A DNA stretch of 64,000 nucleotides from an uncultured cyanobacterium (GCA_963710605.1 CAVQBA010000007.1:502416-566415), one strand, 5' to 3'. Shown: positions 521 through 48,348, counted from the stretch's first letter. The notes: generated from the sequence alone by a model not told the origin. Numbers and translations are program-made.

Positions 521-3500
521 ATGACCACAGTGAGTACAAGTTATCAAGAAGAATTGAGTATTTATTCGAGTTCTGAGTTATTATTACGTCATCGATTAAA
601 ATTAGTTGAGAATTTATGGGTTTCAGTACTAAAAAATGAATGTGGACAAGAGCTAATTGATTTATTAGATAAACTAAAATCAGCTTGCTCTCCTGAAGGG
701 CAAACTACTGATATTGATCAAATTTCAGTTAGTAATTGGATTGAAAAATTAGAGTTAGATGAAGCGATACGGGCTGTTAGAGCATTTGCTTTATATTTTC
801 AACTAATTAATATTTTAGAACAACATTACGAACAAAGAACTCAAAAGCTGATTCGTCGTACTAGCACCGAAGCACAAGTAAATGCGATCGAAACTTCACC
901 ATCAAATTCGGCTCACGATAATGGTAAAGATAATAGTTATTTTAATCTGAAATCGACTCCTAGTGGAGGCGGTACATTTCATTGGCTTTTCCCTTATCTG
1001 AGAAATTTAAACGTACCACCTCAAAAAATACAACAATTAATTGCTCAACTAGATATTAACCTTGTTTTTACCGCTCACCCAACAGAAATTGTTCGTCACA
1101 CTATTCGTAAAAAACAACGTCGTATTGCTTCTATTTTAGAAAAACTCGATTTGGCTGAAGAGTCTAACCGTAATATGAGTTTGACTAATTCTTGGGAAGA
1201 AGAAAATTATCGCCAATTGTTACTCGAAGAAATTCGCTTATGGTGGCGTACTGATGAATTACATCAATTCAAACCAACTGTTTTAGATGAAGTTGATTAC
1301 GCTTTACATTATTTTCAAGAAGTCTTATTTGATATCTTACCAGAATTATCTAATCGTTTAAAACAAGCATTAAACATGACTTTTCCCGGTTTAAAACCAC
1401 CTGTGGAAAAATTCTGTTATTTCGGCTCTTGGGTAGGAGGCGATCGAGATGGAAACCCGTTTGTAACTCCAGAGGTTACTTGGTCAACGGCTTGTTATCA
1501 AAGAAATATAGTTTTAGAAAAATATATCGATTCAGTTCATCAACTTAATGATATTCTCAGTTTGTCATTACATTGGTGTAATGTAGAACCAGAATTATTA
1601 GATTCATTAGAACGCGATCGTATTGCGATGCCTGAAGTGTATGATCAGTTTTATGTCCGTTATCGTCAAGAGCCTTATCGTCTTAAACTAGCTTATATTG
1701 AAGAAAAACTAATTAATACTAAAGCTCGTAACCAAGCACTTTCTAATCCAGAAACCAGAAAATCAATCAAACTCGCTCAAAAAGCAGACAAAGTTTATCC
1801 TAGTAGTAACGACTTTTTACAAGACTTAAATCTAATTAAGGATAATCTGGAAAATACTAATATTCAGTGTCAAGAATTAGTCCGTCTAACTCGTCAATTA
1901 GATGTTTATGGTTTTCATCTTACCCCGCTTGATTTTCGTCAAGATTCTTCTCGTCATTCTGATGCCTTAAATGAAATTGCTGAATATTTAGGAGTACTAG
2001 ACAAACCTTATAATGAATTATCCGAAGACGAAAAAACCCAGTGGTTAATTAAAGAATTACAAACTCGTCGCCCTTTAATTCCGACAGAAGTAACTTTTTC
2101 TGACATTACGACAGAAACGATCGAGACATTTAAAGTACTTAGAGCATTACAATTAGAATTTAGCTTAGATATTTGTCAGACATATATCATCAGTATGACT
2201 AATTATGTCAGCGATGTCTTGGAAGTATTGTTACTAGCTAAAGAAGCAGGGTTATATGACCCCATCTTAGGTATGACAACCATTAGAATCGTACCTCTAT
2301 TTGAAACAGTAGAAGATTTAAAAAGAGCACCCTCAGTAATGACAGAATTATTTGAGTTACCGCTTTATCGTGCTTGTTTATCAGGTGGTTATCAAAACTT
2401 AGACAAATCAGCATCTTATCTCAACCTACCTGTATTAAAACCCTATGATTTACAAGAAATCATGTTAGGTTACTCAGATAGTAACAAAGACTCAGGTTTT
2501 GTTAGTAGTAACTGGGAAATACATAAAGCTCAGAAAAATCTGGCTAAAATCGGGACTAAATATGATCTTAATATCAAAATATTCCACGGTAGAGGTGGTT
2601 CAGTCGGTAGAGGAGGAGGCCCCGCTTATGCGGCTATTTTGGCTCAACCTAGCTCAACAATCAACGGTAGAATTAAGATTACTGAGCAAGGAGAAGTACT
2701 CGCTTCTAAATATTCTTTACCCGAATTAGCTTTATATAACTTAGAAACAATTACCACCGCTACAATACAAGCCAGTTTACTCGGTAGTGGTTTTGATGAT
2801 ATTGAGCCATGGAATCAGATTATGGAAGAAATATCAGCGGCTTCTCGTAAAACTTATCGTCAACTTATTTATGAGCAACCAGACTTTTTAGACTTTTTTA
2901 TGTCTGTGACTCCTGTAGAAGAAATCAGTAAGTTACAAATAAGTTCTCGTCCTGCTCGTCGTAGTTCGGGTAAAAAGGATATTTCATCTTTAAGAGCAAT
3001 TCCTTGGGTATTTAGTTGGACACAAAGCCGTTTTCTTCTCCCTGCTTGGTATGGTGTGGGTACTGCTTTACAAGACTTTTTAGATCAAGAGCCTGAAGAA
3101 AACCTTAAACTATTACGTTCGTTTTATATTCGTTGGCCGTTTTTCAAGATGGTAATTTCTAAAGTAGAGATGACTTTGTCTAAAGTAGATTTACAAATGG
3201 CGAGTCATTATATTGAGGAGTTGTCTGATGAGAAAGACAAAGAGCGTTTTTATGCTTTGTTTGAGCAAATTAAGAAGGAATATACTTTGAGTCGAGATGT
3301 TGTTTTGAAGATTAATGAACAAGAAAAATTACTTGATAATGATCCTGAACTGCAACGATCGGTACAATTAAGAAATGGAACGATCGTACCTTTAGGATTT
3401 TTACAAGTATCTTTAATTAAACGTCTAAGACAATACGCCAAACAAGACAGAGCGGGTTTAATCCATTTCCGTTATAGTAAAGAAGAATTGTTACGGGGTG

Positions 3501-5916: not shown

Positions 5917-6171
5917 ATGGAAATAGTTAATTATTCTGAAGCAAGAAGAAACTTTAAACAGATTTTAGATTGTTTGAGTGAAGACTGTGATACGACATTA
6001 ATCAAAAGAAGAAATTGCGAAGATGTCGTATTAATATCAAAGAGTCATTACGATTCTATTATGGAGACATTATATTTAATGAAATCTCCTGCTAATGCTC
6101 AACACTTAAACGAAGCTATCGCTAGAGACAAAGCAGGTAAAAGTGAATCTCATGATTTAATCGATGCGTGA
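5917..6171 (+). CDS. yefM: YefM/Phd antitoxin
   Basis: MEIVNYSEARRNFK...VVLIS...YDSIMETLYLMKSPANAQHLNEAI. It overlaps the yoeB start. Confidence 0.95.
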   Translation: MEIVNYSEARRNFKQILDCLSEDCDTTLIKRRNCEDVVLISKSHYDSIMETLYLMKSPANAQHLNEAIARDKAGKSESHDLIDA

Positions 6172-6323
6172 ACTAGTTTGGGATACAAAAGCTTGGCAAG
6201 ATTACATTTATTGGCAAAGTCAAGACAAGAAAACTCTTAAAAGAATTAATCGACTAATCAAAGATAGTTTGGTTAATCCTTTTGATGGAATCGGAAAACC
6301 TGAGCCTTTGAAAGAAAATTTAT

Positions 6324-7688
6324 CTAAGGAGCGTAAGACCCTCACGTCCCGTGAAGGGATGTAAGCGGATTTAGTTTTTACAATTTAAGTCTTTAGTTTG
6401 TAAAAAATGTGATAGAATCAGTATATCATACATCAAGCATGAAGTTGAAATGCTTAATCTGACGTACAACTACAAGCTACAGCCAACGAAAAAACAAATA
6501 GGAATAATTGAACAGAATCTAGATGTTTGCCGCTCTGTTTGGAACTATGGGTTGTATGAAAGAAAGCTATGGTACAACTCCCGTCAATGTGAAATTAACA
6601 AATGTTCATTACACAGTGAACACATTGTTGAACCTTTTGAATATCCTAATTACCATCATCAATCTAAACAGTTAACTAAAGCTAAAAAAACTAATCCTTT
6701 CCTTAAATCAGGCAATGCTCAGGCTATGCAACAGACTCTAAGAAAGTTGGATAAAGCATTTAATGACATGAAAAACAAAGGCATGGGCTTTCCTAGGTAC
6801 AAAAAGAAAATGAAATCTTTTAACCTAATTAGCAATAAAATTGAATTAAATGGTAATTATCTTAAGATGCCTCTGTTGAAAAACATCAAAGTGAGAAAAT
6901 CTAGAGATATTCCAGAAGGCTTTAAGATAAAACAAGCTCAAATCATTAAAAAAGCTAGTGGTTACTATGTTAATTTAATGATTGAGTTTGATGTTAATGT
7001 ACCTTCACCTAGTCCACATGGTCACGCACTAGGATTAGATGCTGGTATTCAAAGTATGATAGCAACCTCTGATAATTTAACTATTCCTAGACCTAGGTTT
7101 TTAGACAAAGTATTACGTAAGATTAAATTACTACAAAGAAAACTTAGAAATAAAATCAAGGGTTCTAATAAATGGAAAAAGTTGAATCATAGAATTGCTT
7201 TACTGCATGAAGCCGTAGCTAATAGACGAAAAGACTATCACTTTAAACTAGCTCACCAACTAGTACAAGAAAATGGAATGATATTTGTAGAAGATATTAA
7301 CTTTAAGTCATGGTCTAAAGGGCTGTTTTGTAAGCAATCTTTAGATATGGGTTTAGGTCAATTCTTTACTAGACTAGAGTATATTTGCTCACAGACAGAC
7401 ACCTATTTTGCAAAGGTAAATAAAGATTTCACGTCTCAAATATGTCCTAACTGTAACACTCATACAGGAAAAAAAGAACTAAATGTAAGAATACATAAGT
7501 GTCCTGAGTGTGGGTATGAACAGGATAGAGATATTGCGGCGGCGGAAGTAGTAAGGAATCGAGGTTTAGAAAACACTGCGGTAGGAACTATCGTGGTTAA
7601 ACAGCCCAGTAATGGCGATCTGACAGGGGCAATAGCCTAGTTAAGAGTCTATATGGGAATCCCCCGACTCTGTCGGCGGGAGGTTCAA
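6324..7688 (+). mobile_element. IS200/IS605-family tnpB-only (IS1341-type) element, 1365 bp
   Basis: Boundaries come from the yoeB reconstruction. It is inserted 3' of TTTAT. Left hairpin CCCTCACG-TCC-CGTGAAGGG, right hairpin CCGAC-TCT-GTCGG, terminal ...GGGGAGGTTCAA. No tnpA. Confidence 0.93.
6450..7640 (+). CDS. tnpB: TnpB RNA-guided endonuclease
   Basis: N-terminal YNYKLQPT...CRSVWNYGL, RuvC-I LGLDAG, RuvC-II IFVEDIN, zinc ribbon CPNC...CPEC and RuvC-III DRDIAAA. Confidence 0.96.
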   Translation: MLNLTYNYKLQPTKKQIGIIEQNLDVCRSVWNYGLYERKLWYNSRQCEINKCSLHSEHIVEPFEYPNYHHQSKQLTKAKKTNPFLKSGNAQAMQQTLRKLDKAFNDMKNKGMGFPRYKKKMKSFNLISNKIELNGNYLKMPLLKNIKVRKSRDIPEGFKIKQAQIIKKASGYYVNLMIEFDVNVPSPSPHGHALGLDAGIQSMIATSDNLTIPRPRFLDKVLRKIKLLQRKLRNKIKGSNKWKKLNHRIALLHEAVANRRKDYHFKLAHQLVQENGMIFVEDINFKSWSKGLFCKQSLDMGLGQFFTRLEYICSQTDTYFAKVNKDFTSQICPNCNTHTGKKELNVRIHKCPECGYEQDRDIAAAEVVRNRGLENTAVGTIVVKQPSNGDLTGAIA

Positions 7689-7789
7689 CTGGTTATTGGT
7701 CGAGAAGAATTGATGAAACAAATCGATTAGTTTATCGAGTAGCAGAAGACTATATTAAAATTATCTCCTGCCGATACCACTACTAACTC

Positions 7790-32260: not shown

Positions 32261-32284
32261 AGGGTGCAAGCCTTGCACCCCTAC
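32261..32284 (-). repeat. GTAG REP downstream of RAYT
   Basis: The minus strand reads GTAGGGGTGCAAGGCTTGCACCCT. Confidence 0.85.
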
Positions 32285-32311: not shown

Positions 32312-32943
32312 TTAGAAAAGAAGATCGATCGTTATTTCCGACTGTATTACTTTTTCAGGATCGTCATCCCATTTTCGGGGATTATTAATAATATATTGAC
32401 GAATATTATCTAATTGTTTTTGGTCACGAATAATTGATTCATAATAATTTTTTTGCCAAACACGAATATTGCGATCGACACAAATACTTTTAATTTGTCT
32501 GGTGACGGCAGACTTAAAACCCGAAACAAACGTCGAAAGCGATTTCGGTTTACGTTGCCAACCCGACTGTAGGGGTGCAAGCGGTCAGAACCCGCTCAGG
32601 AGCGTAAGACGCAAGGGAACGCTGACCAAGACAGGTTTGCACCCTGATTATCTTTATCCTGATGAAGATTTCCATTATTATCAATCACAACAATCCCATG
32701 AATATGATTAGGCATCACAACCCATTCGTCAAATTCAATTTCTTTTCTGATTTCACTTGAGTTTAACCATTCTTCCACAACCAAATTACCTATTTGATTA
32801 CGAATCATTTTTTCTTGAATAATTTCACCAAACAGACATTGTTTTTGGTAGGTACAAATAGTGACAAAATAATATCCAGACAGTGAATAATCATAGTTTG
32901 GTAAACGTATCGATCGACGATGATGATAATCTTGCAAATTCAT
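32312..32943 (-). pseudogene. REP-associated tyrosine transposase (RAYT/TnpA-REP, Y1 HUH), interrupted
   Basis: HHRRSIRLPNYDYS..YFVTICT and HUH motif MPNHIHGI. After the insert come RKPKSLSTFVSGFKSAVT, WQKNYYESIIR and IRQYIINNP (catalytic Tyr). Removing 53 nt gives a 192-aa ORF. Confidence 0.92.
32581..32632 (+). mobile_element. 52-nt structured mini-element inserted in a REP inside the RAYT gene
   Basis: GCGGTCAGAACCCGCTCAGGAGCGTAAGACGCAAGGGAACGCTGACCAAGAC splits GTAGGGGTGCAA / GGTTTGCACCCT. Two related copies lie at 48107-48209. Confidence 0.85.
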
Positions 32944-47999: not shown

Positions 48000-48106
48000 A
48001 ATCTATATTTACTTCTATTTTATGATAATTATTTACTTACTAGTTTAGCGAGGACATGAAAAAAAGGACACTTGTGCAAAGGGCAAGAGTAAGTTGATAG
48101 TTGATA

Positions 48107-48209
48107 GCGGTGGAATCCCGCTCAGGAGCGTAAGACGCAAGCGGTCAGAACCCGCGACGACGGCAAGTCGCAAGGGAAGGCTGACCAAGACGGGAACGTC
48201 CACCAAGAC
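48107..48209 (+). mobile_element. Nested pair of mini-elements (outer 48107-48140+48192-48209; inner 48141-48191) inside a (GTTGATA)n repeat
   Basis: Removing the 51-nt inner copy leaves a 52-nt element colinear with 32581-32632. Removing that restores the heptamer tandem repeat exactly. Confidence 0.88.
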
Positions 48210-48348
48210 GTTGATAGTTGATAGTTGATAATGGCTTTGTTGACAATTAACAATATTTCTTACTCATTACTCATTACTCATTACTTGTTACTCGTTACTC
48301 ATTCCCTAACACCTAACTAATACCTTAAGAGTTTAAACCCTTAGTTTG

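Follow-up and report, generated by a model that had tools for sequence, protein, structure and literature searches.

Left end of a tnpB-only IS200/IS605-family element in a cyanobacterial genome and its probably coincidental likeness to small nested repeats

We analyzed a stretch of 64,000 nucleotides (nt) of DNA from an uncultured cyanobacterium, referred to below as the window, which is C7:502416-566415 in a genome of 3.93 Mb, 7 contigs, and 33% G+C. It contains an insertion sequence (IS) of the IS200/IS605 family at 6324-7688 whose first 16 nt, CTAAGGAGCGTAAGAC (6324..6339, + strand), agree at 15 of 16 positions with a sequence, CTCAGGAGCGTAAGAC (the C form), found in two mini-elements of the same window (32595-32610 and 48121-48136, both on the + strand). 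An earlier note had pointed out this likeness, and both sequences were located where it had placed them; it went on to propose that the mini-elements might derive from, or be moved by, HUH transposases. We find that the 16-mer is the left-end linker of the IS and includes a predicted guide, and on balance we favor the reading that its likeness to the mini-elements is a coincidence and that the mini-elements are not IS605 derivatives.

Results

The left end of the IS

The limits of the IS were read from the toxin gene that it splits. The 5' part of yoeB (6164..6323, +) matches positions 1-49 of the 80 in the Pfam YoeB_toxin profile and ends in TTAT (6320-6323), which directly precedes the IS, and the 3' part (7689..7786, +) matches positions 50-80 of 80 (E 1.7e-13, for 7691-7786). 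Homologues of yoeB in G001, a genome of the same genus as the host that is 67% complete, and in G004 are uninterrupted at this exact point (...AATTTGT|CAGGTTTTTGG). The split of the profile and the uninterrupted sites together therefore define the insert as the 1365 nt at 6324-7688, which entered without duplicating or deleting any target base; C7689 is a base of yoeB and lies outside the IS. The match thus begins exactly at the IS boundary, as the earlier note had said. Its further claim, that the 16-mer spans the interval from the cleavage site to the foot of the left hairpin, also held: in the single-stranded DNA (ssDNA) fold the left subterminal hairpin, CCCTCACG-TCC-CGTGA(A)GGG, occupies 6339..6358 (+), and C6339, the 16th base, is the first base of its stem. 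The related left ends described below agree with this placement.

The IS is an ordinary tnpB-only element of the well-known IS200/IS605 family, to which it adds a new member. It is inserted 3' of a specific tetranucleotide (TTAT|IS|C), has subterminal imperfect palindromes at both ends, and carries a conserved right-end tetranucleotide. The right end (7657..7688, +), recognized from the ssDNA fold and from relatives, consists of GAAT (7657-7660), a hairpin (7661-7680), and the terminal TCAA (7685-7688). The accessory gene tnpB (OrfB; 6450..7640, +) encodes 396 amino acids (aa) with Pfam matches to OrfB_IS605 (77 bits), Cas12f1-like_TNB (59 bits), and HTH_OrfB_IS605 (43 bits). It is the sole family-matched gene in the element; no Y1 TnpA gene was found there, and a PF01797 search of contig C7 gave no match. 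As no tnpA lies inside it, the IS is therefore non-autonomous, and a BLAST search with the whole IS showed it to be present as a single copy in the host genome. Upstream of the split yoeB is a yefM/phd antitoxin gene (5917..6171, +; Pfam PhdYeFM_antitox, E 2.4e-20).

The left border reads TTAT|C, AAGA (6335-6338) lies 5' of the left hairpin foot, and GAAT lies 5' of the right foot. The combinations of AAGA with TTAT and of GAAT with TCAA fit, as sequences, the pattern of IS608 and are kept in relatives; from its position and conservation we predict that AAGA is a guide that would pair with TTAT. Given this IS608-like anatomy, the 16-mer is therefore the entire linker, reaching as far as the base that opens the stem, and the unpaired bases just before that one are the predicted guide. 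The clean anatomy of the IS also leads us to predict that TTAT is the target-adjacent motif for the encoded TnpB.

Related elements and an enzyme in trans

Relatives of the IS were searched for in 61 related genomes, where the best matches were 70-75% identical. All of the full-length relatives examined (5/5) end in GAGGTTCAA (GGTTCAA|) and diverge beyond it. Left ends were collected by a scan for a guide-plus-hairpin pattern in one genome per species, from which 80 of 106 stretches were examined; most of the matches were chance occurrences in G+C-rich genomes, and 15 were cyanobacterial left ends, taken from records of Crocosphaera, Xenococcaceae, Microcoleaceae, and Lyngbya. Together with one further locus (L012) and a second copy of the left end in the host genome itself, on contig C5, these made a set of 17 related left ends sharing the hairpin of the window IS. 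Most of the 17 read TTAT|C, then 15-19 nt, then AAGA and the hairpin, with (G/T)AAGA 5' of the hairpin; the exceptions were L059 with TAGA, L075 with GAGA preceded by TCAT, and L073 with TTAT|T.

The earlier note had held that its proposal would be refuted if other copies of the IS lacked the 16-mer, and the full 16-mer was carried by none of these 17 left ends. Parts of it were present: its last 11 nt occurred in one related left end and its last 9 in two. The linker of L052 (...GAGCGTAAGA + C) ends in the last 11 nt of the 16-mer up to the stem, that of L064 ends ...GGCGTAAGA, and both carry GCGTAAGA + C; L047 has ...GCGATAAGA + C and also agrees with the window IS in the sequence that follows the hairpin on its 3' side. 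In other cyanobacteria the IS lineage carries GAGCGTAAGAC or GCGTAAGAC. Since parts of the 16-mer recur in relatives in this way, the greater part of it is linker and guide sequence that the IS has inherited. What is peculiar to the window IS is CTAAGGA, for which relatives have CTTTTCG or CTTTGAA.

The element on C5 is identical to the window IS at 25 of 27 bases across guide and hairpin, and it adjoins a tnpA gene (C5:128605-128967). At two of the other loci, L052 and L039, left ends of this type lie beside tnpA genes that are 77% identical to the C5 tnpA. From these two observations a C5-type TnpA is therefore the likely enzyme, and we predict that it would most likely mobilize the window IS in trans. 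Strong matches to tnpA number 7 in the host genome, which also has several RAYT-like genes. At C6:939801-944095, close to where this contig ends, we also observed an inverted duplication of a tnpA-tnpB region, about 85% identical over about 2.3 kb.

The nested unit that carries the 16-mer variant

The mini-elements are built around a small unit. Mini-element 1 (32569..32644, +) is a hairpin of the repetitive extragenic palindrome (REP) type, GTAG-GGGTGCAA, whose loop holds a nested 52-nt unit (32581-32632), as judged from folds and from empty copies of the REP; the 16-mer variant at 32595-32610 lies in the central hairpin of this unit. Mini-element 2 (48107..48209, +) consists, by sequence and fold, of two nested units (the inner one at 48141-48191) that lie in a GTTGATA array and are not enclosed by a REP, with the 16-mer variant at 48121-48136. 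At 48070-48290 of the window this mini-element is surrounded by heptamer arrays, of GTTGATA and then of TCATTAC-like repeats, and units elsewhere lie in GTTGATA and GAGAATT arrays. The nested unit is 50-52 nt long and reads GCGGT...CCAAGAC, and comparison of empty with filled sites placed its borders at ..A|GCGGT...CCAAGAC|G... Empty sites were seen in the REP loop (GTGCAA|GGTTTGCAC), within another unit (GCAA|GGGAAC), and in heptamer arrays (GTTGATA|GTTGATA and GAGAATT|GAGAATT). A search of the window with Rfam at gathering thresholds returned nothing but one tRNA.

The 16-mer variant belongs to the center of the unit. The common center is CCCGC-GTCGG-CG(T/A)AAGACGC, with the stem GCGTC/GACGC (GCGTC-GGCG(T/A)AA-GACGC), and the central hairpin CCCGCGTCGGCG[AT]AAGACGC was found, at <=2 mismatches, in 24 copies in the host genome, 12 in G002, 9 in G019, and 2 in G001. 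The center that bears the 16-mer, CCCGC-TCAGGAG-CGTAAGACGC, is the CTCAGGAG variant and was found only in the host genome; it has lost the common GCGTC/GACGC stem and so looks derived. Other graded variants of the center are CTGACGGAAGCG.. and CTCAGATGCG... Center and arm types reassort among units, and at least one hybrid of nested units (C6:367924) demonstrates recombination. The "sub-insert" of the earlier note therefore dissolves into a variant of the unit's central hairpin, from which it is not separable. Its structural context differs as well, in that GCGT-AAG-ACGC folds as a small hairpin in the unit and is unpaired linker in the IS. The host genome contains the IS form of the 16-mer at a single place and the C form at seven, each of the seven within a mini-element. 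Among 401 genomes of the order, either form was present in the host genome only, and in a metagenome scan a pattern of 18 nt that accommodates both forms was matched 13 times, never in an IS-like or unit-like context.

Beyond the 16-mer, the mini-elements have nothing in common with the IS. They retain no terminal hairpin or cleavage site of the supposed parent: we found in them neither a hairpin of the IS nor TTAT at the left border nor TCAA at the end, and the BLAST search of the genome with the whole IS detected no similarity to them. The units are also present in G002 and G019, two genomes in which a search at <=2 mismatches did not detect the IS left-end hairpin; it was likewise not found in G001 (67% complete) or G009. 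These results speak against the mini-elements being products of the TnpA that moves the IS. We conclude that the nested unit is a separate small mobile element, distinct from both the IS and the REP.

Two further sets of units were read in their surroundings. At three G002 loci (L145, L151, L155) the unit occupies the same spot in a repeat that looks like coding sequence (...ATTGATGAAACAGGAGA.CGTAAAAA|unit|AAGGAAATA...), so part of the 12 copies in that genome may have hitch-hiked with a carrier. A 31/40 ungapped match between the unit and a repeat near tnpA (C6:941881) was considered as homology to an IS end and rejected, the unit there lying within the tnpB open reading frame. This unit of about 50 nt (L006, approximately 3170-3230) has the stem GG(A)TGCG/CGCACC and shifts the tnpB frame, and the sequence that it interrupts recurs at C1:7203 and C6:584018, three places in all.

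The outer hairpin and the RAYT-like gene

Mini-element 1 splits a RAYT-like Y1 (HUH) gene (32312..32943, - strand), whose halves match Pfam Y1_Tnp at positions 6-64 and 63-121; at 21 bits, each half by itself falls slightly short of the 23-bit cut-off. A sequence scan found an empty REP, GTAGGGGTGCAAGGCTTGCACCC, just 3' of the gene (32262..32284, -). The outer hairpin of mini-element 1, GTAG-GGGTGCAA..TTGCACCC, has 31 copies at <=1 mismatch, and the 34 perfect GTAG-GGGTGCAA hairpins comprise 27 with a loop of 3-4 nt and 7 whose loop holds 54-104 nt. A census of GTAG hairpins gave at least 10 families in the genome. In G010, which belongs to another genus, the ortholog of the RAYT-like gene (L173, G010:C1:3981228-3984485) is 70% identical and has an intact frame of 195 aa. 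Three of the four copies of GTAG-GGGTGCAA in G010 are at this ortholog: two flank it, one per side, and the third lies in frame within it, codes for GANLAPL, and corresponds in position to the internal copy of the window gene. Since the REP is in frame in the intact ortholog, it was therefore the nested 52-nt unit, and not the REP, that broke the RAYT-like gene of the window.

The outer hairpin is thus a short palindrome that follows GTAG, has many dispersed copies, and is physically associated with a Y1 gene both in the window and in G010. By its sequence and these associations it appears to be the REP that belongs to the window's RAYT-like gene (32312-32943). As for the proposed origin or movement of the mini-elements by HUH enzymes, then, the part that stood is the connection of the outer REP hairpin with the RAYT-like gene, and everything resting on the 16-mer fell away. 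The RAYT connection is supported for the outer hairpin only, on evidence independent of the 16-mer, and nothing that we found links the nested 50-52-nt unit to TnpA or RAYT.

RAYT-like paralogs at C1:347622-348152 and C7:302330-302875 make up, with the window gene, a set of three that differ in the GTAG hairpin found near them (GGGTTGAACA.., GGACGTTGCA.., and GGGTGCAA..); the C1 paralog has its own GTAG hairpin on both flanks. The largest GTAG family, GTTGGGTT, has 47 copies, mostly with loops of 44-49 nt, and flanks two classical RAYT genes on C4 and C2. We considered TTGCACCC beside these two classical genes as a REP and rejected it; it is coding sequence (MWGANEE) there, and the real flank is GTAG-GTTGGGTT. 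On both flanks of the G010 ortholog, tandem partial REP arms (GCGGGGTGCAAACCTT repeated) lie beside complete REPs.

Discussion

In the explanation that we favor, the 16 bases would be the spacer from the cleavage site to the left hairpin of a tnpB-only IS sitting precisely after TTAT in yoeB. The bases AAGA would pair with TTAT as AAAG does with TTAC in IS608, and a TnpA encoded elsewhere, most likely on C5, would move the IS in trans. The likeness to the mini-elements would be built on a short core, GCGTAAGAC, that the IS lineage and the unit family possess independently; CTCAGGAG would be a variant of the common center of the unit family, the outer hairpin a REP, and the unit a mobile element in its own right. 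We rank coincidence first because the lineage-specific part of the match is only 5-6 bases long, because the graded variants need no donor, and because there is no second case. The value of this explanation is corrective: the 16-mer becomes an ordinary linker plus a predicted guide, the "sub-insert" becomes a variant of the center, and the HUH link is confined to the outer hairpin.

How surprising the match is depends on what is compared. The window as a whole would be expected to contain 0.01 matches at <=2 mismatches. For a wider comparison we used a unit-family catalogue of 64 intervals (4056 nt, 2888 16-mers), against which the linkers of related IS score 10-12. Outside this catalogue, 36 places in the genome match some family 16-mer at 15/16; by our own inspection about 10 of them are worn family fragments and about 25 are unrelated single hits, including 3 in 16S rRNA. 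A rough family-wise p, estimated by hand, for a match at an IS605-type end is 0.01-0.07, the low value applying to the terminal 40 nt and the high value to 200 nt. Several observations weigh against coincidence. When the fixed 16-mer was compared with the 2888 unit-family 16-mers, 15/16 was reached in 2/20000 composition-preserving shuffles. The IS is the only one of the 36 places within 1 kb of any of the 26 tnpA/tnpB loci, and there it is flush with the IS boundary. The IS-specific bases (CTAAGGA) are those that match the unit variant (CTCAGGA), and both derived forms are known only from the host genome, as a short exchange within the lineage would leave. Finally, every unit closes with AAGAC as well (...CCAAGAC), and a shared constraint could lie behind this. 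The comparison with chance on which the earlier note had made its proposal depend thus gave a divided answer: genome-wide, to judge by the roughly 25 unrelated hits, the match as such is not unusual, and with the 16-mer fixed it is rare in shuffles. We conclude that it is the position of the 15/16 match, and not the match as such, that is unusual.

The strongest rival holds that, within this lineage, the left end of the IS and a unit's central hairpin exchanged a short patch, by gene conversion or template switching seeded by GCGTAAGAC. The direction could be from IS to unit, creating CTCAGGAG, which then spread, or from unit to IS. An exchange would account for the restriction of the derived forms to the host genome (1/401 genomes of the order, 0/13 metagenome hits), for the agreement between the bases peculiar to the window IS and those of the unit variant, and for the p of about 1e-4 in the fixed-position shuffle; the units, moreover, plainly recombine, as their reassorting types and the hybrid at C6:367924 indicate, and the CTCAGGAG variant, being without the GCGTC/GACGC stem, looks derived. 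The lineage-specific match, however, amounts to only about 5-6 bases with one mismatch, and graded variants such as CTGACGGAAGCG.. and CTCAGATGCG.. could reach CTCAGGAG stepwise with no donor. Neither an intermediate nor a second converted site was found, and such a match occurs at only one of the 26 tnpA/tnpB loci. We therefore hold such an exchange to be possible, although unlikely.

Another rival supposes that the units are ssDNA substrates of a Y1 HUH enzyme, TnpA or RAYT, that reads AAGA(C) beside a hairpin as its guide, so that the IS and the unit would resemble each other through a shared constraint. The conservation of AAGAC 5' of the left hairpin across the IS lineage, and its presence both at the end of every unit and in the central hairpin, are what such an enzyme would call for, and candidates exist in the genome among its RAYT-like genes and the 7 strong matches to tnpA. 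The units also enter hairpin loops and repeat arrays without duplication, at sites that are likely to be single-stranded or extruded. Single-strand transposition would further lead one to expect a strand bias relative to replication; the GC skew of the genome is too weak for replichores to be placed. An AAGA guide predicts TTAT sites, however, and the units have TTAT at neither border; the AAGAC of the unit lies 3' of stems or within a loop, not 5' of a stem foot; and the left flanks of the units vary (..CAA, ..ATA, ..ATT, ..GAA), unlike the result of guide-directed cleavage. In other genomes GAAAGAC is as frequent as GTAAGAC at the center, and units are present where the IS hairpin type was not found. 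On these grounds we think this rival quite improbable. A broader proposition, that the units are tied to IS200/IS605-type single-strand transposition, either by exchange with IS left ends on ssDNA or through a Y1 enzyme reading AAGAC plus a hairpin, with the 15/16 match as the first trace of the tie, seems to us distinctly unlikely; if it were true, the family of enzymes behind very small nested mobile repeats could be named. That the mini-elements are miniature derivatives of this IS, of the miniature inverted-repeat transposable element or palindrome-associated transposable element (MITE/PATE) type, keeping part of its left end, is very hard to credit, as only the 15/16 match speaks for it, whereas IS hairpins, TCAA end, and TTAT flank are lacking, BLAST finds nothing further, and the unit family predates the single-copy IS and has spread more widely.

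Comparison with known systems

Among repeats of similar kind, the units recall the small dispersed repeats (SDR) of Nostoc punctiforme that Elhai et al. reportedly described in 2008, which are said to be tiny, hairpin-forming, and mutually inserting, with no known mover. The units here are 50-52 nt long, with a central hairpin and the end ...CCAAGAC. The IS itself, a single copy with 75% identity at best to relatives, falls in the tnpB-only subgroup of IS200/IS605, usually named IS1341-like.

The best model for the ends of the IS is IS608, in which, according to the published account of its ends, the left cleavage site follows TTAC and is separated by 19 nt from the hairpin foot that lies 3' of it, TCAA closes the right end at a distance of 10 nt on the 3' side of the right hairpin foot, and each foot has a four-base guide on its 5' side, the left one being AAAG (PMC3201880). 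Like IS608 with its "peel and paste" movement as presented there, the window IS lies 3' of a tetranucleotide without duplication and has two subterminal hairpins, a TCAA end, and tnpB, and the four bases 5' of its hairpin feet would be able to pair (AAGA/TTAT compared with AAAG/TTAC in IS608). Unlike IS608 as described in that account, it has no tnpA, its left spacing is 15 rather than 19 nt, and its target is TTAT rather than TTAC.

For the outer hairpin the corresponding model is the REPtron, formed by REP and TnpA-REP (RAYT), whose published description gives GTAG followed by a palindrome, many copies, and a tie to a Y1 gene (PMC8266576). The outer hairpin of mini-element 1 resembles the group 3 REP of that description, in which GTAG is followed directly by the palindrome, here of 8+8 nt with a 3-nt loop. 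As in the REPtrons described there, its copies are dispersed and number in the dozens, some of them at a Y1 gene in two genera. Unlike those REPtrons, one REP lies in frame inside the RAYT-like gene, and 7 of the 34 perfect copies have 54-104 nt in the loop. The 16-mer belongs to the nested unit and not to the REP.

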